Shown: positions 4,236 to 23,144 of the stretch, in pieces
How positions within the stretch are numbered: position 1 is the stretch's first letter
Layout of the letters: each line of letters begins with the position of its first letter
NCBI GenBank assembly: GCA_041675105.1
Contig: JBAYUL010000001.1
Location: 1 to 35,382 of the forward strand
Direction of reading: 5' to 3'
Source: Minisyncoccota bacterium
Lineage (GTDB): Bacteria > Patescibacteriota > Minisyncoccia > Phycocordibacterales > UBA2100
DNA: 35,382 bases
Notes under the pieces: generated by a model
Told to the model about the DNA's origin: nothing
The model's input: only the letters and a program-made list of their open reading frames with translations
The model's database searches: none
Made by a program: the position numbers and the translations under genes

Positions 4236-4592
4236 TCAGTCGCGAACATTGGATACGTCGGTGACCCTTGCCTCCACGCGCTGACAAAACCAATGCTCGT
4301 GAATGCGCGCGCTCACGATAAATGTTGCCTCAGGGGCAGCAATGGCAAGGTGCTTCTTGATCTCAGGCACCTCGATCATATAGGCTCTAATATGGAGACG
4401 CATCGCAGTTTTCCAGCCGAGGCACGAGCTTTCCACGAGCCTTGTCTTGTCCCAGTCGATCACACGATCTCTTCGCATCACGCTCGGTGCAACTAGCCAC
4501 GAGTGCGTAAACTGAGGTTCTGAGTCTGGGGGTTGAGCGCAGCTTGTGACGATCAGCGCGATGCTTAGCGACGCTGCTTGGAGTAGGCGCAT
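4236..4592 (-). CDS. Hypothetical lipoprotein
   Basis: N-terminal signal peptide with lipobox 'LIVTS-C' (MRLLQAASLSIALIVTSC). A GGGG SD-like element lies ~9 nt upstream. No recognisable domain. Confidence 0.6.
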   Translation of the reverse strand: MRLLQAASLSIALIVTSCAQPPDSEPQFTHSWLVAPSVMRRDRVIDWDKTRLVESSCLGWKTAMRLHIRAYMIEVPEIKKHLAIAAPEATFIVSARIHEHWFCQRVEARVTDVSNVRD

Positions 4593-4851: not shown

Positions 4852-5586
4852 TCAGAGCGAGAACTTCCAGAGCGCGTAGGCCAGCACCTTGTCGACATCG
4901 GCCTTGATGTCGTGGCGGAACGTGTACAGATTGTCCGCGGTGCTCGACTTGAGCGCTGTGTAGTAGCCCTTCTGGTACTCGAAGCCGAAAACGAGGTAGT
5001 CGAACGGCGCGTACTTGAAGCCGGCGAGCAGCATCGGGCCGACGGCGCCGTAATCGTTGCACGTCGTCGAGTTGTAGCCGGGGAAGCTGAACCGCTCGCA
5101 TGCCGACAGCACGCCGTAGTTCAGGCCGCCGCCGACGTAGAGCGCGTAGCGATTGAAGGCGACGCCGATCGTGCCAGCAGCGGTGCCGGACCACTTGAGC
5201 GAGGTCGAAAGCAGGTCGCTGTAGCCGCAGCCGGTGCACGCGAGTTCCTTGGAACCGGTGATGTTCGACTTCTCGTAGGCGACGAATGCGCCGACGACGA
5301 GCCATTGCCACTGGTAGTCGAATCCGGCGCGGACGCCAAAGAAACGGCCCTTCATGTCGAACGAATTATCGGTGGCCCCGGAGAAGGCCGGGAAGCCGGA
5401 ATAATTGTAACTCGACGTGTCGGAATTGTTGGCGGCCGCGGTGCCGCCGTAGGCGCCGATGGTGATGCCGGTCCAGCTGAACGGAGCAGTGCTCTGATAG
5501 CCTTTGGTGAGGTCGGCGGCGGAAGCGGCGGAACACGAAGCGATGAGCGCAGCGGCCGCAATTGCGGTTTTGAGCCGTGAAAGCAT
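4852..5586 (-). CDS. Outer-membrane beta-barrel protein, Omp25/Omp31-like (OMP_b-brl type)
   Basis: Signal peptide ending 'ASAADL', 'APFSWTGITIGAYGG', repeated amphipathic beta-strand pattern ('GVRAGFDYQW', 'ALYVGGGLNYG', 'LLAGFKYAP', 'LVFGFEYQKG') and an aromatic C-terminus 'LWKFSL'. A GGGGGA SD is present. Codon third positions are strongly G/C. Confidence 0.8.
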   Translation of the reverse strand: MLSRLKTAIAAAALIASCSAASAADLTKGYQSTAPFSWTGITIGAYGGTAAANNSDTSSYNYSGFPAFSGATDNSFDMKGRFFGVRAGFDYQWQWLVVGAFVAYEKSNITGSKELACTGCGYSDLLSTSLKWSGTAAGTIGVAFNRYALYVGGGLNYGVLSACERFSFPGYNSTTCNDYGAVGPMLLAGFKYAPFDYLVFGFEYQKGYYTALKSSTADNLYTFRHDIKADVDKVLAYALWKFSL

Positions 5587-18324: not shown

Positions 18325-18352
18325 ATGTCGCACAATATATCTTTTGCGACGT
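18325..18352. other. dif-like / tyrosine-recombinase core-type site (11-6-11): ATGTCGCACAA|TATATC|TTTTGCGACGT, left junction of the element
   Basis: The arms are inverted repeats (inner 9 nt match 8/9; 11 nt match 9/11) around a 6-bp spacer. The spacer plus right arm form the 15-bp direct repeat. Confidence 0.6.
18336..18350 (+). repeat. Direct repeat copy 1 (TATATCTTTTGCGAC)
   Basis: Identical 15-mer at 23128-23142. Confidence 0.9.
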
Positions 18353-18363
18353 ATAGCCATCTG

Positions 18364-18387
18364 CAAAAAGGGGTTGATTCTACCCCT
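18364..18387 (-). terminator. Rho-independent terminator at the end of the element's last gene
   Basis: Minus strand: AGGGGT-agaatca-ACCCCT followed by TTTTTG. It overlaps the stop codon at 18386-18388. Confidence 0.6.
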
Positions 18388-18808
18388 AAGCTCGAACCAG
18401 CTTGTCGTGCTGATAGCTACTAAGACCTACTGCTTGCGGTGCGGGACACAAATGCCCTCTCGCGTGGTGATACCGTAATAATCCCCTAAGCGATCGCAAT
18501 GCTCTGTCTTCTGCGTACTTAGTCGTCTCTTGCTCCTTCAGATACCGTTCAAAGGCTCTTAAATGGCGTATTTCGATCTCCCCCACATCTGAAATATCGG
18601 CAAACCGAGCAAACCTCGTCAGAATGGGTTTTTCCATTGGAGCCATCGTAGGAGCTGTCAGAACCTTATGACTAAGGTAATCCTGTATCTGCGATTCAAT
18701 TACGCGCTCTTTAAAGCGTCCTAACAGGCTAATTCGATTGATCATGTTCATTATGACTTGAGTCAAGGAGCTAAAGATTATTTTACATGAGAATTGAGCC
18801 GTCTGCAT
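18386..18808 (-). CDS. Stand-alone protein resembling the N-terminal SAM-like (core-binding) domain of tyrosine recombinases; no catalytic domain
   Basis: 'IEIRHLRAFERYLKEQETTKYAEDRALRSLRGLLRYHHARGHL' fits the Phage_integrase_N/SAM-like helix pattern. The ORF ends with its own terminator 36 nt from the element border, so there is no room for an RHRY catalytic domain. Confidence 0.5.
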   Translation of the reverse strand: MQTAQFSCKIIFSSLTQVIMNMINRISLLGRFKERVIESQIQDYLSHKVLTAPTMAPMEKPILTRFARFADISDVGEIEIRHLRAFERYLKEQETTKYAEDRALRSLRGLLRYHHARGHLCPAPQAVGLSSYQHDKLVRA

Positions 18809-18810
18809 AT

Positions 18811-19578
18811 CTATTCCTTTGACCCTTTAAACACACGGTGCCGGCAATTGCCCAGATACCGAGAGTAATACTGCTCGTCCGTCAGAACTTCCTCACCATT
18901 CAGCTCGTCTAAGAGAGACCAAAGTGATGACGTTCCTCGCGAAATGAATGGACGCAAGACATTCCTAGATGCCACATATGATTTCTGGTTTCTTAATCGG
19001 GGATCGGTGAAAGCTTTCGCCATATATTTTGCAAGGTAGTTGGCTATCTTGATATGCCCGTCAGTTTTTTTGTAGTAAACGAATCCCATACCCCATTTCA
19101 TTGCGATTGTTCGAGTAGTCCGTTCTTGTGATACCACCTCCTCGGGTAGCCCCCAGAACAAACTGTGAAAATGAACAGCTCCACGTTTTTGGAATTCAGG
19201 GACGGCAATGTACTTGAATGATTTGCCGTAGCTGTAGCGGAGAGCTTGGTTAAAAGCGCGGAGACGTTTGTATCCGTAAGAGAGATCGGTAATGATATCT
19301 TTGCAGGTAAGAGTAATGAGTACAGGAAGTTCAGATCCGACAAGGTTAGCTTCGACCAGTCTTCTAAAATCCATTTTTGCGCGTCGCGAATGATCGTGTC
19401 TTTTCCCCAACTTCCCTTTCGATACAGAATTGCCTCCATCAGCTCCCAAATCCACATTTGAAGCGTTAGTCTCACGTTTTGGTGATGGGCGTCTTCGTCG
19501 ATCCACCACCCTTGGTTCTCGTTGGTATTCATATATTTCTGTTTTATTCCCGTATTGAATTACTTTGTTGTAGCCCAT
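18811..19578 (-). CDS. HUH-superfamily rolling-circle replication initiator (two-tyrosine, phiX174 gpA-like)
   Basis: Motif 1 'VLITLT' (19320-19306), motif 2 HUH 'AVHFHSLFW' (HFH at 19173-19165), motif 3 'NYLAKYMAK' = YxxKY (19038-19024). Start set at ATG 19578, because the upstream part of the ORF-track call overlaps a terminator and a hairpin. Confidence 0.8.
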   Translation of the reverse strand: MGYNKVIQYGNKTEIYEYQREPRVVDRRRRPSPKRETNASNVDLGADGGNSVSKGKLGKRHDHSRRAKMDFRRLVEANLVGSELPVLITLTCKDIITDLSYGYKRLRAFNQALRYSYGKSFKYIAVPEFQKRGAVHFHSLFWGLPEEVVSQERTTRTIAMKWGMGFVYYKKTDGHIKIANYLAKYMAKAFTDPRLRNQKSYVASRNVLRPFISRGTSSLWSLLDELNGEEVLTDEQYYSRYLGNCRHRVFKGSKE

Positions 19579-19600
19579 TGAATTCTTAGCTATTTGTACT

Positions 19601-19676
19601 GAGTGGCGCGTATAGCAAGTCTGGACAGCCGGCCGCGGCGCTAAAGCGCCTGCGGCACGCCTGTCCGGCGCCACTC
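19601..19676. other. 76-nt GC-rich composite stem-loop upstream of rep: candidate double-strand origin / nick site
   Basis: Outer stem GAGTGGCGC/GCGCCACTC (19601-19609/19668-19676), middle stem GGACAG/CTGTCC (19623-19628/19661-19666), inner ~12-bp GC stem with TAAA loop. A 13-nt asymmetric internal loop reads AGACTTGCTATAC on the rep strand. Confidence 0.5.
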
Positions 19677-19686
19677 CCCTCTCTCT

Positions 19687-19715
19687 GTATAAAAATTCCC
19701 TGCATGACAGCAGGG
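19687..19715 (-). terminator. Rho-independent terminator after the wHTH gene
   Basis: Minus strand: CCCTGC-tgtcat-GCAGGG followed by AATTTTTATAC, ~35 nt after the stop at 19751. Confidence 0.65.
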
Positions 19716-19750
19716 TGCTACAGAACGAGAACCAAGTGTATGGGAACGTT

Positions 19751-20635
19751 TTAACTTTGTTTTGACTCGTCCGAATCTTCGCCAAAAACAAGGCGATATC
19801 CCACTTGAGCGACATTGTGGAGCACGTCGAGCTTCAGTTTCTCCTTGATGCCTTGAATGATCGGATACAGATCCATTCGATCTGTTTTCGTAGGTTCAGT
19901 CCGATTAGGGTAAGCTGCCCGTATAAGATCAGCGTGCGAAGCCTGCATATCAGGACTCTCACACAGGGCAAGTAGCACCTTAAACTCCTTTGATGAGGGC
20001 GTGAAAGTTCCTCGGACATCGCTGAGGACGAAGTCTCCTGTACGGCGGTTGAGGAGTAGAGGGCATTCTTTAGCCGGAGGCTCTTTGGGTGCTTCCATTT
20101 TGGGCAACTTCTCAACCTCTGCAAGGAGCATCAAATGAAACTGTTTTAGCCTATTCTCGAATGATTCACGATTCGCATATCGGCGGGCAAGCCGCTTTAG
20201 ATTCTCCCTGCCCCATTTTGTGGGTGATCTCTTTGCATATTCGGGGTTGATATTCTCGACGCCTTTCATCATGACAAGAGCTTCGGGGTATAAATCATAC
20301 TCAGGCTCGTTGATAGCGTTTTTATAGTCCTCAAGTGGGTCATACACCCATGCTTCAGTAAAACAACCGACGGCATAGAGACTAAAGCGCTCAAGTCGAT
20401 CTGTGCGTTCTGCCCTATCATCAGCCTCCTCGTCAGTTAGTTTGTGATCACGTTCCCATACGGCAATGTGCTTTTCTCGAAGTTCGTTTTCGCTCGCCTC
20501 ATAAAGCCCGTGCAAGACAGGGTCTTTAATTACAAGGTCAAAATAGTGATGTAGGTTTTGATAGAACCTCGAATTGTTGTCGCTCTCGAACACAGCATCG
20601 TAGCGGATTTTTAGGGACTCTTGCAGATTAATCAT
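19751..20635 (-). CDS. Protein with C-terminal OmpR/PhoB-type winged-helix DNA-binding domain; N-terminal ~190 aa unknown
   Basis: C-terminus 'FTPSSKEFKVLLALCESPDMQASHADLIRAAYP...TDRMDLYPIIQGIKEKLK...AQVGYRLVF' follows the Trans_reg_C pattern. There is no receiver domain. Confidence 0.6.
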   Translation of the reverse strand: MINLQESLKIRYDAVFESDNNSRFYQNLHHYFDLVIKDPVLHGLYEASENELREKHIAVWERDHKLTDEEADDRAERTDRLERFSLYAVGCFTEAWVYDPLEDYKNAINEPEYDLYPEALVMMKGVENINPEYAKRSPTKWGRENLKRLARRYANRESFENRLKQFHLMLLAEVEKLPKMEAPKEPPAKECPLLLNRRTGDFVLSDVRGTFTPSSKEFKVLLALCESPDMQASHADLIRAAYPNRTEPTKTDRMDLYPIIQGIKEKLKLDVLHNVAQVGYRLVFGEDSDESKQS

Positions 20636-20644
20636 ATAGGCCTT

Positions 20645-21991
20645 TTACGGCAGGTCCATTTGTCGATTTATTTCGTCAACCCACGCAGAGGCAAGCAGTT
20701 TAAGATTTGCCATATTGTCTGCACCTTGCTCAAGAAACCTTTCGAGATAATCCAATGCTTCTGAAGGATTTTGTAATTTTCGATAGTACAAAAAGCCAAT
20801 CCAAAAAAGCAGCTGAGGTCTTCGGTCGCCGTCAGCAATCATCTTTTTCGAGAAATTAATGCTGTCATTCGAAATGCGAGTATCTCCTTCAGAGGTGTGC
20901 CGTTCAAGACTCCTACAGACTCGTTGTGCATGGTCAAAGTCTTCATTCACCAGGAGCAAAAATGCTCTGTTAAATTTCCACGTGACGTCTCCGGTAGGCG
21001 CTGCTCGTTCCGCGATATCCGTTGTTTCTAGTGCGGCACTAGCGTCATTATCATATTTAAACTCGATTATAGAACGCAGAATAAGAGCGGAATAATTGCG
21101 CTGCGCGATTGTTAACGCCGCTCCCACTTCTTCTCGTGCCTCATCCAGCCTGCCTGCATTAAAGGCCGCGATTCCTTTAACAGCGTGGGCGTCACTAATA
21201 ACATTGTCCAATTTGGAATATATTGCTTGAACATTCGGTGCCAAGGGCTTAGGGAGGGCCGCAATTTCCTCTTTTAAGCGAGTATGTAGATTCAGCGTAG
21301 AGTCGGGTTTACCCGAGATAAGTGCGGCAACGCCAGTAATGTATCTGACTGTGTAATAAATCATATCTCCCGCTATTTCTGAGGCGTGGAACGACATATC
21401 TTCGGTAAACTGCAGACGCACTGGCAATGCTTCTCGGAAATCTCGCGAGAGTTTACTGCCGATGTTTATAGAAACTGGACGATGTGAGACGTAGCCTTCG
21501 AGATCAAGATAGGTGAAGGCTCCCCTATGGCGTGCAAAACCCCAAATCCATATATCGCCTCTAGTTTTTCTATTCCGCCTTGCGATATTCCCCCCGTTAA
21601 CAGTTCTAGCGAAATGTTCTGGCAGATCAATCACATGCGTTGAATCACTAATTCCGCCAGTAACTAGGTCGGCTCGGAGCTTCCTCATCAGGTCACTTTT
21701 CAATACTTCTGCCGACGGGTCATGTTCGGTTGAGATAGAGATTACTATATTCAACCTGTCTCTTTTCTTTCTCGGTAGCCGGAATCTGCCAAACAACCAG
21801 ATAGCAATGAATATAGACACGGTTGCAACGTCAAAATAGAACAAATACTGCTTCGGAAGAAAGGCGTTTAAGATCACGCTGTTTAAGGTTCCTAGAACAA
21901 GCATGATTAATACCACCCAGCCAATAAGCGCCTTGAAGCCATAAAACGGCCTCAACCAACTGACGATTTCCTCGGCAAACTTATCGGGCAT
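20645..21991 (-). CDS. Membrane protein: two N-terminal TM helices, unknown central domain, C-terminal TPR-like repeats
   Basis: Hydrophobic helices 'ALIGWVVLIMLVLGTLNSVILNAF' and 'VATVSIFIAIWLFG'. C-terminal helical repeats ('GIAAFNAGRLDEAREEVGAALTIAQ', 'FWIGFLYYRKLQNPSEALDYLERFLEQ'). The stop is 9 nt before the next gene's ATG. Confidence 0.6.
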   Translation of the reverse strand: MPDKFAEEIVSWLRPFYGFKALIGWVVLIMLVLGTLNSVILNAFLPKQYLFYFDVATVSIFIAIWLFGRFRLPRKKRDRLNIVISISTEHDPSAEVLKSDLMRKLRADLVTGGISDSTHVIDLPEHFARTVNGGNIARRNRKTRGDIWIWGFARHRGAFTYLDLEGYVSHRPVSINIGSKLSRDFREALPVRLQFTEDMSFHASEIAGDMIYYTVRYITGVAALISGKPDSTLNLHTRLKEEIAALPKPLAPNVQAIYSKLDNVISDAHAVKGIAAFNAGRLDEAREEVGAALTIAQRNYSALILRSIIEFKYDNDASAALETTDIAERAAPTGDVTWKFNRAFLLLVNEDFDHAQRVCRSLERHTSEGDTRISNDSINFSKKMIADGDRRPQLLFWIGFLYYRKLQNPSEALDYLERFLEQGADNMANLKLLASAWVDEINRQMDLP

Positions 21992-22049
21992 TGCCGAATC
22001 CTACTGCTCATGAAGGTTTGACACAACTACAGAACATGCCAGAAAACGC

Positions 22050-22082
22050 AAAACCACTCTTTCAGGTGGCCCTATGTCTAAC
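22050..22082 (-). repeat. 33-nt hairpin-containing repeat, copy A (terminator-like; between the cargo genes)
   Basis: AAAACCACTCTTTCAGGTGGCCCTATGTCTAAC, 29/33 identical to 23045-23077. On the minus strand the CCACCTgaaaGAGTGG hairpin is followed by TTTTGCGTTTT. Confidence 0.7.
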
Positions 22083-22113
22083 GCGCCTTTAAAACACGAA
22101 GAATAGTAGAATT

Positions 22114-23109
22114 TTAAGCCTGCTGAGCACGTGCCTCAAGCCAAAGAGGTAGAAGTGCATTCTTCTTTGCTTTTATATCCTTGAGCCAGTCCCTGAAATC
22201 CTTACGGTGCTCCTCTTTCAAAATATGTGCATCCACGAAGTCTAAGAAGTACGCCGTAGTGCCTAGGCCTAAGCTGGCCAGCCAAAAACGCTCACGACCC
22301 ATACCGTGTTTCAAATAAGGATTTCCATGCACGATCTCGGAAACGTAAGAATAAATTTCATATTGCTTTTTTGCGCCAAACACCGTCGCTGCTCTTTTCG
22401 AAAACGACGTCATTTTCTCTTCTGTTAGTACCTCCCTCCAGGGCGGAATGAGGAGTTTTCGATCTCGCAGCCAATAAAAATCAAACTCCGAATGCTTCCT
22501 GGGGTAATCTGGCATCTCTCTGACTAGCAGGGACTCGTTTAAGGCTAAAAGTACCTCGAAACCTCTTATATCGGGAACTAAATGAAAAGTCCGTAGCTGA
22601 TAGGTCAAAATGATCAATGCCCTCCGGTCCTCGCTCATTATTGAAGTGTCGTGGACATAGAGATTTCGAGCATAAATGTCCATCAACGCTCTGAGAGTCG
22701 ATAGTCTAAAGAATGATTTATCATCTTCAAGACGTAAGAACTCATCTGCAATAAAACTCAAATACTGGGAATAAACTTCTAGAGATTTAACACGAAACTG
22801 ATTGAAAAGTATCGCAACAGGATCATCTCTCTGATCAGGATGCTGCGCGTGTTCGTGGATTTGTTTTGCTCTCGCATCGAGCATGATAACGCCGCTCCGC
22901 ATAGACGCCGCATAGCCCTCAAAAACTGAGTCTTCCTCCCTAACCATGATCTCATTATACATATATGCGACTAACCGGTTCCTAAAATAAATCACACCAA
23001 ATTTCGTCCCGTTGTCGTCCCACATGGGGAATATGCTTAAGCATAAAACCACCCTTTCGGGTGGCCCTATGTTTAGCTCCTTGAAGGCTTTTAAGTGTAT
23101 TTTCGTCAT
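22114..23109 (-). CDS. Hypothetical protein (331 aa as called; true start may be ATG 23025)
   Basis: Long AT-rich ORF with no TM segment and no motif I can assign. Codons 10-21 are encoded by repeat copy B, which raises doubt about the 5' end. Confidence 0.6.
   Translation of the reverse strand: MTKIHLKAFKELNIGPPERVVLCLSIFPMWDDNGTKFGVIYFRNRLVAYMYNEIMVREEDSVFEGYAASMRSGVIMLDARAKQIHEHAQHPDQRDDPVAILFNQFRVKSLEVYSQYLSFIADEFLRLEDDKSFFRLSTLRALMDIYARNLYVHDTSIMSEDRRALIILTYQLRTFHLVPDIRGFEVLLALNESLLVREMPDYPRKHSEFDFYWLRDRKLLIPPWREVLTEEKMTSFSKRAATVFGAKKQYEIYSYVSEIVHGNPYLKHGMGRERFWLASLGLGTTAYFLDFVDAHILKEEHRKDFRDWLKDIKAKKNALLPLWLEARAQQA
23045..23077 (-). repeat. 33-nt hairpin-containing repeat, copy B
   Basis: AAAACCACCCTTTCGGGTGGCCCTATGTTTAGC. 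On the minus strand: CCACCC-gaaa-GGGTGG (6-bp stem, GAAA loop) followed by TTTTAT. Confidence 0.7.
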
Positions 23110-23116
23110 CCCCTAT

Positions 23117-23144
23117 CATTCTCGTTCTATATCTTTTGCGACAC
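23117..23144. other. Hybrid (half) core site at the right junction: CATTCTCGTTC|TATATC|TTTTGCGACAC
   Basis: The spacer and right arm are identical to the left-junction site. The left arm is unrelated to ATGTCGCACAA. Confidence 0.55.
23128..23142 (+). repeat. Direct repeat copy 2 (TATATCTTTTGCGAC)
   Basis: Identical 15-mer at 18336-18350. Confidence 0.9.

Follow-up and report, generated by a model that had tools for sequence, protein, structure and literature searches.

Comparative analysis of a putative phiX174/pC194-type replication module and a likely nested gene in an integrated element of a Patescibacteria bacterium

Initiators of rolling-circle replication (RCR) of the two-tyrosine HUH type carry motif I (uuTu), motif II (HUH), and motif III in this order, with two tyrosines three residues apart and a lysine (PMC3218068). 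The A protein of phiX174 (gpA) belongs to the Pfam family Phage_GPA (PMC5714925), and gene B is nested in gene A (PMC8227390). The phiX174 record annotates base 4306 as the viral-strand origin; this base is the A of CCCCCAACTTG|ATATTAATAAC, at the G|A step of CAACTTG|ATATT (CAACTTGATATT). CTTGATA is the conserved nick site of the double-strand origin in the Rep_1/pC194 replicons (PMC10378824), and the integrative element pSAM2 undergoes rolling-circle replication after excision (PMC10378824, PMC3218068). A further group, the REP_ORF2-G2P replicons, includes the Geobacillus plasmid pGTG5 (Rep5), cryptic plasmids of Brevibacillus and Bacillus, gokushovirus-like Microviridae (VP4), and phiRSM-type inoviruses of Ralstonia. 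Here we describe a locus in one whole contig of 35,382 bp (JBAYUL010000001.1; hereafter the window) from a Patescibacteria (candidate phyla radiation, CPR) genome of 834 kb in 120 contigs. Positions 18811-19676 are likely to serve the replication of an integrated rolling-circle element of 4.8 kb as a module comprising the initiator gene rep, a conserved box with a putative nick site, and a GC-rich hairpin.

The module was noticed in an original prediction, made from the sequence of the window, as a phiX174-A-like initiator next to a hairpin-borne double-strand origin; the observation was confirmed, and its interpretation was largely supported. The window origin and that of phiX174 (CAACTTG|ATATTAATAAC) share the ACTTG core, followed by A or C and then T. 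Both elements have a gene, a probable one in the window, nested in the initiator gene, although the phiX174 gene lies in the +2 frame, that of the window lies in the +1 frame, and the two are unrelated. The window origin is located upstream of rep, after the GC hairpin, whereas that of phiX174 is inside gene A, and the window element has no capsid genes. The phiX174 genome also has a small GC hairpin (CCCC GAA GGGG, 4328-4345) just 3' of its origin, while that of the CPR family is 5' of the nick. The REP_ORF2-G2P replicons are members of the same Pfam family as the window Rep at 28–35% identity, and pGTG5 and the microvirus MG945510 have ACTTGAT ~35–40 nt before rep with GC hairpins ahead; the order of hairpin and ACTTG is that of the window element. 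In contrast, these replicons exist as free plasmids or as viruses that carry virion genes, whereas the window element is integrated and carries no capsid or transfer genes. The base after the nick G is mostly C in the clade of the window but A in the REP_ORF2-G2P plasmids and phages, and these distant relatives lack the nested +1 gene. As a rolling-circle module of the phiX174/pC194 type, Rep and its origin are ordinary and expected, and the nested gene is the new part.

The initiator and the putative nick box

The rep gene occupies 18811..19578 on the minus strand and encodes a protein of 255 aa, assigned to the two-tyrosine (superfamily I) HUH rolling-circle initiators by Pfam and PHROG profiles and by its motifs. 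The start was placed at the ATG at 19578, and not at ATG 19815 of a mechanically called 334-aa open reading frame (ORF), because MGYNK opens nearly all homologues examined. The original prediction had listed three HUH motifs in the order VLITLT, HFH, and YLAKYMAK, and these were borne out in the minus-strand frame (19306-19323, 19165-19173, and 19015-19038, respectively). T91, H136, H138, Y181, K184, and Y185 are invariant among 23 homologues that are 49–78% identical to the window Rep. Judged by its sequence, Rep has the motifs that are expected of two-tyrosine (superfamily I) RCR initiators.

The profile searches placed Rep in a family other than that of phiX174 A. The Pfam family PF23343 (REP_ORF2-G2P), one of the HUH families with which the original prediction had proposed to compare Rep, was matched with 62.7 bits against a cut-off of 27.8 (E = 4.2e-17, 97 of the 99 profile positions), and phrog_3419 ("rolling circle DNA replication initiation") was matched with E = 8.5e-25. 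The Pfam search gave no match to Phage_GPA at E ≤ 1, and Rep_1 was not listed either. RepSA scored 33.2 bits, under its Pfam cut-off of 34, and the NCBIfam model of RepSA scored 18.8 versus 700. The window element shares with pC194 and pUB110 (Rep_1) and with pSAM2 (RepSA) an HUH initiator and a CTTGATA-type nick site; it differs from pC194 and pSAM2 in these profile results and in having no Tra or Int-Xis module. The resemblance to phiX174 A is found in the two-tyrosine motif (YVAKYVNK in phiX174 and YLAKYMAK in the window) and in the VPE(F/Y)...HFHA block that contains HFH in both proteins; hhalign aligned 50 columns around this block (E = 1.7e-4, probability 49%). The two proteins differ in length (255 versus 513 aa) and in Pfam family. 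On the profile evidence, Rep is a member of REP_ORF2-G2P and not of the phiX174 A family, and its likeness to gpA is real but local. The description "phiX174-A-like two-tyrosine Rep" therefore holds for the motifs but not for the family. The AlphaFold2 (AF2) model of Rep (predicted local distance difference test (pLDDT) score of 81.8) is confident except for residues 26–55 (~19414-19503), a basic linker predicted to be disordered between an N-terminal beta-hairpin (residues 3–18) and the HUH domain. A Foldseek search with this model gave weak matches (E = 0.017–0.2), with the Rep domains of Helitron, circovirus, adeno-associated virus (AAV), and nanovirus among the top ones, and a sequence search of the PDB with Rep found no match.

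The Rep homologues are almost all encoded in Patescibacteria/Paceibacteria genomes (891 homologues found). The comparison set consisted of 80 genomic and 32 IMG/VR loci encoding Rep relatives, plus the three closest contigs. In 46 of the 52 loci of the Rep clade, the rep strand has exactly one ACTTG[AC]T in the interval 15–100 nt upstream of the ATG; from the frequency of the motif in the remainder of these loci, 0.66 such loci would be expected. The ACTTG of the window lies at 19616-19620 (minus strand) inside a ~25-nt box, AG ACTTG|CTATACGCGCCACTCAGTAC (19594..19622, minus strand), which is the candidate site for recognition and nicking of the double-strand origin. The box columns were read after anchoring the 46 loci on ACTTG, which leaves the flanking columns unforced. 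Among the latter, G-1 (43/46), T+6 (46/46), C+13 (45/46), and A+16 (46/46) are conserved, and T+14 and C+17 are also almost invariant, giving the consensus TGACTTG(C/A)TAnnTA(C/A)CTAAC. The sequence GACTTGCTA at 19613-19621 (minus strand) is the sole exact copy in the window, and no other conserved candidate nick site was found in the element. Similarity of the box tracks similarity of Rep (Spearman 0.43), but this is explained by linkage alone and was not used as evidence.

The core of the box extends beyond the clade. Genes for Reps of 28–35% identity from Firmicutes, Gammaproteobacteria, and viral contigs are preceded at 40–80 nt by TCTTAACTTGATTATAnCCACACATCTAA and AACTTGAT, and AACTTGAT is also present in the RCR plasmid pGTG5 and in Microviridae MG945510. 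In pGTG5, a Geobacillus rolling-circle plasmid of 1,540 bp, ACTTGAT is located 39 nt before Rep5. In MG945510, a GC hairpin is followed, after 4 nt, by ACTTGATAA ~35 nt before the VP4-like gene. The conservation of the box, the distant relatives, and the phiX174 record support the claim that rep adjoins a double-strand origin nicked in or near ACTTG/CT. None of the three findings named in the original prediction as contrary was encountered: instead of homologues without a conserved hairpin or ACTTG loop upstream, ACTTG is present in 46 of the 52 loci and a hairpin in 39 of the 46, Rep matches the profile of an HUH family, and the conservation of the hairpin region is not explained by coding (see below). 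ACTTG/CT is, by comparison, a well-supported candidate nick site, and in sequence and conservation it matches what is expected of a phiX174/pC194-type double-strand origin. From the analogy with phiX174, we infer that the nick falls between G19616 and C19615.

RCR Reps often autoregulate. The box is found 21–55 nt before the ATG, in the place expected of a promoter, and its 3' part is A/T-rich and resembles a -10 element. These features would fit a box that serves mainly as a Rep operator or promoter for autoregulation of rep, with the true nick elsewhere. We consider this very improbable, given that the invariant core is the nick heptamer of the phiX174 and pC194-type origins, that relatives from other phyla and a microvirus retain the box although their promoters should differ, that no sigma-70-like promoter was called in the region, and that no other conserved candidate site was present in the element.

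The hairpin upstream of the putative nick box

The segment 19601-19676, directly upstream of rep, has a G+C content of 71%, compared with 45.7% for the AT-rich island that contains the element. The original prediction had described it as the most GC-rich stretch of the island, and in fact no other 76-mer anywhere in the 35-kb window is richer in G+C. As single-stranded DNA (ssDNA) of the rep sense, it folds into an outer stem of 9 bp (19601-19609 with 19668-19676) followed by stems of 6 and 12 bp; an asymmetric internal loop holds AGACTTGCTATAC. The folding energy is -33.9 kcal/mol (z = -5.9, with 0/200 shuffles as good), and the opposite strand gives z = -5.0. The predicted three-tier stem-loop of 9 + 6 + ~12 bp is thus formed in the window as drawn, but its three tiers are not conserved in the family. 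The conserved part is the inner GC-rich hairpin of 18 bp with the apical loop C-TTTA-G (19623..19666, minus strand), which is 44 nt long and ends 2 nt 5' of ACTTG.

When the 75 nt before ACTTG were folded, 39 of the 46 loci gave a hairpin with 10 bp or more, with a median of 18 bp and an end 0–36 nt before ACTTG. The median z was -4.6 (z < -2 in 38/46), and C-TTTA-G is the apical loop in roughly half of the hairpins. MAFFT combined with RNAalifold detected no structure in 16 origins, because the stems are too divergent for sequence alignment. A covariance model of hairpin plus box, built from seven origins, detects the module immediately upstream of rep in 33 loci (E < 5e-4), including that of the microvirus. 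In the resulting alignment (32 sequences), 91.2% of the cells are paired, compared with 66.3 ± 1.4% after shuffling (0/500 shuffles as high). Two-sided changes occur in 16 of the 17 pairs, cells with double changes number 86 against 19.7 expected, and only 26–47% of the cells remain paired when the partners are slid by 1–3 columns. These alignments indicate that the inner GC hairpin is conserved through compensatory changes. The occurrence of the hairpin-then-ACTTG layout in the microvirus and the Geobacillus plasmid suggests that it is the ancestral origin architecture of the whole REP_ORF2-G2P family. Among 33 distinct hairpins, 28 are more stable on the rep-sense strand and one on the antisense strand (G.T pairs, 16 versus 6). 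This strand bias points to a role of the hairpin as ssDNA on the nicked, displaced strand or as RNA and argues against a symmetric duplex binding site.

The outer stem behaves differently from the inner hairpin. Its 3' arm, GCGCCACTC on the rep strand (19601..19609, minus strand), overlaps the conserved 3' box of the origin, and its 5' arm, GAGTGGCGC on the rep strand (19668..19676, minus strand), is lineage-specific. The stem places ACTTGCTATAC into the internal loop of the window element. Compared with the closest relatives, GCCTCAC is changed to GCGCCAC in the window element, precisely at the two box positions that create the stem. Among these relatives, locus L115 has a shifted alternative stem, and L114 and L116 have no clear equivalent. 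A nick site enclosed in a loop was rejected as a rule of the family, because at least four enclosing pairs are found in only 19 of the 46 loci and shuffled 3' tails give as many (3.9 versus 3.3). In one separate subclade (L005–L009), ACTTGCT is immediately flanked by a small inverted repeat. The internal loop described in the original prediction is therefore present in the window fold, but neither the outer stem nor the loop geometry is general, and the conserved parts of the origin, as read from the alignments, are the inner hairpin and the linear nick box. The prediction had also noted an 8-mer shared by the loop and the left junction as a possible secondary Rep site. The two copies of GCTATACG exist (minus strand, 18350-18357 and 19609-19616). 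However, 0.65 copies are expected in the window, two or more were obtained in 13 of 100 shuffles, and in L114, the closest second integrated element, this 8-mer is not common to the loop and the junction. We attribute the shared 8-mer to chance and reject the secondary site.

The strand bias fits rep-sense RNA as well as DNA, and in ~36 relatives a co-directional small ORF ends in or just after the hairpin. If the hairpin acted as RNA between the upstream gene and rep, as a terminator, an attenuator, or a stabiliser of the mRNA end, the ACTTG box alone would be the origin. The small ORF encodes ~66 aa with the motif ...ISxExAxEYLNSFAxLFxxFAE and is located ~60–200 nt before the hairpin in 36 loci (L002–L047; for example, 6744-6944 in L025). 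Its sole Pfam hint is DUF2164 (E = 0.014), and it is absent from the window element. In the relatives its variable tail enters the hairpin in different frames. The stop occurs in at least three configurations, namely the loop TAG (nine loci), the TGA of TGACTTG, or a codon beyond; the conserved part (...EYLNSFAELF...) stops short of the hairpin. In the window element the hairpin is intergenic. A canonical intrinsic terminator with a 6-bp stem and a T-run (19688..19715, minus strand), located 5' of the origin hairpin and 22 nt before it, belongs to the upstream 294-aa gene. In L114 the upstream gene is divergent and the hairpin is nearly unchanged. Because the upstream gene of the window element has its own terminator, the upstream gene of L114 is divergent, and the conserved part of the small ORF ends earlier, neither coding nor termination explains the conservation of the hairpin. 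For the former two reasons, a function as terminator of the 294-aa gene was rejected for the window element. The hairpin region had been required by the original prediction to be non-coding in homologues; it is not strictly so in many relatives, but coding does not account for its conservation. A role as RNA is, in our view, improbable, since no T-run follows the hairpin in the window element or in most relatives, the same hairpin-then-ACTTG layout is found in a microvirus and a 1.5-kb plasmid, and no Rfam family was matched.

We favour a scheme in which the module at 18811-19676 acts after excision of the element as a circle. The 255-aa HUH Rep would recognise the ~25-nt box TG-ACTTG-CTA...C(C/A)C and nick the strand of the rep sense directly behind the ACTTG, between 19616 and 19615. 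Y181 or Y185 would join the 5' end, and the free 3'-OH would prime leading-strand synthesis. After one round, the second tyrosine would cut the regenerated site, and the displaced strand would be closed into a single-stranded circle, as in phiX174/pC194-type replicons (for the two-tyrosine cycle of phiX174, see PMC5714925). The hairpin, in the last-displaced stretch, would most likely act on the displaced strand in one of two ways: as a mark by which Rep finds the origin or terminates there, or as a start site for the complementary strand. The tight adjacency of hairpin and nick (2–3 nt in the window clade and 4 nt in the microvirus) leans toward Rep, and a hairpin 5' of nic is used by HUH enzymes of the relaxase type. 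A signal for a host factor is favoured, on the other hand, by the variable spacing and by the conserved loop.

A single-strand origin (sso) is usually located in the last-displaced part of RCR plasmids, and the hairpin lies immediately 5' of the nick and is hence the last part to be displaced. It is conceivable, though less likely than not, that the nick box is the origin and the hairpin is a separate sso read by host primase or RNA polymerase, with Rep uninvolved. The structure is favoured on the displaced strand, the loop C-TTTA-G persists in elements whose Reps are ~50% identical despite free variation of the stems, as for a host-factor signal, and the spacing to the nick varies (0–36 nt). 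Origins of the ssoA and ssoU types are elements of 150–300 nt, and the hairpin, with its 44 nt, is far shorter. The ssoA type has a long imperfect hairpin with recombination site B (RSB) and conserved sequence 6 (CS-6, TAGCGT/A) in the loop and is orientation-specific; TAGCG is present in the window, and the hairpins of the family show a strand bias. The loop and stem of the window, TTTAGCGC, resemble the CS-6 TAGCG(A/T) of ssoA origins (PMC10378824); for the general rolling-circle scheme, see PMC5714925. However, TAGCG is not conserved (TAGCC in L017, TAGTA in L022, and TAGAG in L024), an RSB-like element was not identified, and the data fit a Rep termination signal equally well.

Some observations weigh against the proposed replication module as a whole. 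The box overlaps the likely promoter region of rep, and its conservation could be partly regulatory. The similarity of Rep to solved HUH nucleases in the Foldseek search is weak (best E 0.017). In seven of the 46 loci no hairpin of at least 10 bp was found, and the range of 0–36 nt between hairpin and ACTTG across the family is a poor fit to one rigid complex of Rep, hairpin, and nick. In addition, the covariation alignment was fitted to the structure of the model, and the kinship of the sequences inflates the shuffle statistics.

A reading frame nested in rep

An ORF of 144 aa lies in the +1 frame of rep (19098..19532, minus strand). Its ATG arises from the conserved Tyr-Glu codons TAT GAA of Rep, within the YEYE codons. 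The +1 frame is open for 150–170 codons in 46 of 58 relatives, from ~nt 40 to ~nt 500 of rep, whereas the longest opening of the +2 frame has a median of 42 codons. When synonymous codons were shuffled with the Rep protein and the codon usage kept, at least 150 open codons were obtained with a probability of 2%. At four-fold sites, the entropy of the third position is lower in the overlap (0.89 bits, n = 41) than downstream of it (1.61 bits, n = 23; Mann-Whitney p = 3e-5). The amino-acid identity in the alternative frame is 0.418 against a null of 0.231 ± 0.002, compared with 0.275 against 0.254 in the downstream control, while the identity in the Rep frame is the same in both regions (0.53 and 0.55). 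A second open frame is thus combined with signs of purifying selection beyond that on the first frame. An AF2 model of the nested protein, based on 20 sequences, has five helices and a beta-hairpin (pLDDT 76, predicted template-modelling score (pTM) 0.72), and the conserved N-terminal helices overlie the disordered linker of Rep (residues 26–55).

No Pfam family and, in a fold search of the PDB, no solved fold matched the nested protein. A hidden Markov model search of 1.84 billion representatives gave 24 matches, most of ~150 aa, and the seven of these sequences that were read gave no sign of a free-standing family; they include one ~150-aa copy and two frameshift fusions with Rep. The fusions (P0127 and P0137) join the N-terminus of the nested frame to the C-terminus of Rep in one case and the reverse in the other, and are probably frameshifts of the assemblies. 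The nested ORF is absent from Rep relatives below ~35% identity. Its pattern in the sequences is the signature of a clade-restricted overprinted gene, likely real, in ~80% of the clade.

The lack of a matching family or fold would also be expected if the +1 ORF were not a gene but owed its openness and conservation to constraint on Rep, the DNA, or the RNA. The conservation of the nested frame falls in large part on conserved Rep motifs, an obvious ribosome-binding site was not detected, and 12 of the 58 relatives have no nested ORF. Nevertheless, we hold this explanation to be unlikely. The nulls that preserve Rep yield the low values given above for both open length and identity, the downstream control region has almost no excess, and synonymous sites are frozen inside the overlap only. 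The nested ORF begins and ends at conserved positions, the +2 frame is closed, AF2 models the nested protein with confidence, and the best-conserved nested helices lie over the disordered linker of Rep. We lean, with some reserve, toward a dual-coding rep, in which a helical protein of ~150 aa without detectable relatives would be translated from the +1 ATG in the Tyr-Glu codons, would have been overprinted within the clade, and would be an essential accessory of replication, for example in copy control or the handling of single strands. A role as a replication or copy-control accessory is a guess.

The integrated element and its family

The element coincides with the AT-rich island at 18336-23142 (4.8 kb), which has 45.7% G+C compared with ~55% in the flanks and contains five genes, every one on the minus strand. 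At its left end is a dif-like palindromic 28-mer, ATGTCGCACAA TATATC TTTTGCGACGT (18325..18352, plus strand), which contains the left copy of a 15-bp direct repeat (18336-18350). The right copy, TATATCTTTTGCGAC (23128..23142, plus strand), marks the right end. The 28-mer occurs once in the host genome, and in sister genomes the same palindrome is unoccupied and stands alone between the same two host genes. Three loci (L119, L123, and L126) are listed with a conserved, unoccupied site of this type. L114, the second integrated element, found in another host, has the same site arrangement, with repeats at 122-138 and 5099-5126, 4977 nt apart. The host genome gave only two Phage_integrase matches, both at contig ends (3388-3696 of C90 and 4-171 of C92), and these look like the halves of one Xer-like tyrosine recombinase gene split by the assembly.

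The usual backbone of the clade consists, in order, of the small ORF, hairpin, nick box, rep, and a large serine recombinase. The recombinase follows rep in 45 other loci and is lacking in the window element and L114. In the window, an ORF of 140 aa (18386..18808, minus strand) begins 2 nt past the rep stop, in the position where the relatives carry the recombinase; L114 alone among the fetched loci has a homologue. The window element thus has in common with the Patescibacteria integrative rolling-circle elements that carry a large serine recombinase the Rep clade, the hairpin-plus-ACTTG origin, and the nested ORF. It differs from them, together with L114, in that the 140-aa ORF replaces the recombinase and the site is a dif-like palindrome and not the end of a tRNA gene. 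No virion or transfer genes were found among the conserved backbone genes of the clade, and a prophage of a microvirus or an inovirus was ruled out by the lack of virion-gene families among them. Our literature search found no published description of this Patescibacteria/CPR element family.

The comparison of ~50 elements defines the cis-acting origin of a widespread family of CPR mobile elements as a hairpin followed by TGACTTG(C/A)TA...CTAAC. Since CPR organisms are almost without genetic tools, the compact cassette of rep and origin is a natural starting point for a shuttle replicon. The nested gene adds a new and well-supported example of overprinting beyond viruses proper and is testable by mutations that are silent in rep. 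If it is a true gene, it would be a plasmid-like, non-viral counterpart of gene B of phiX174.

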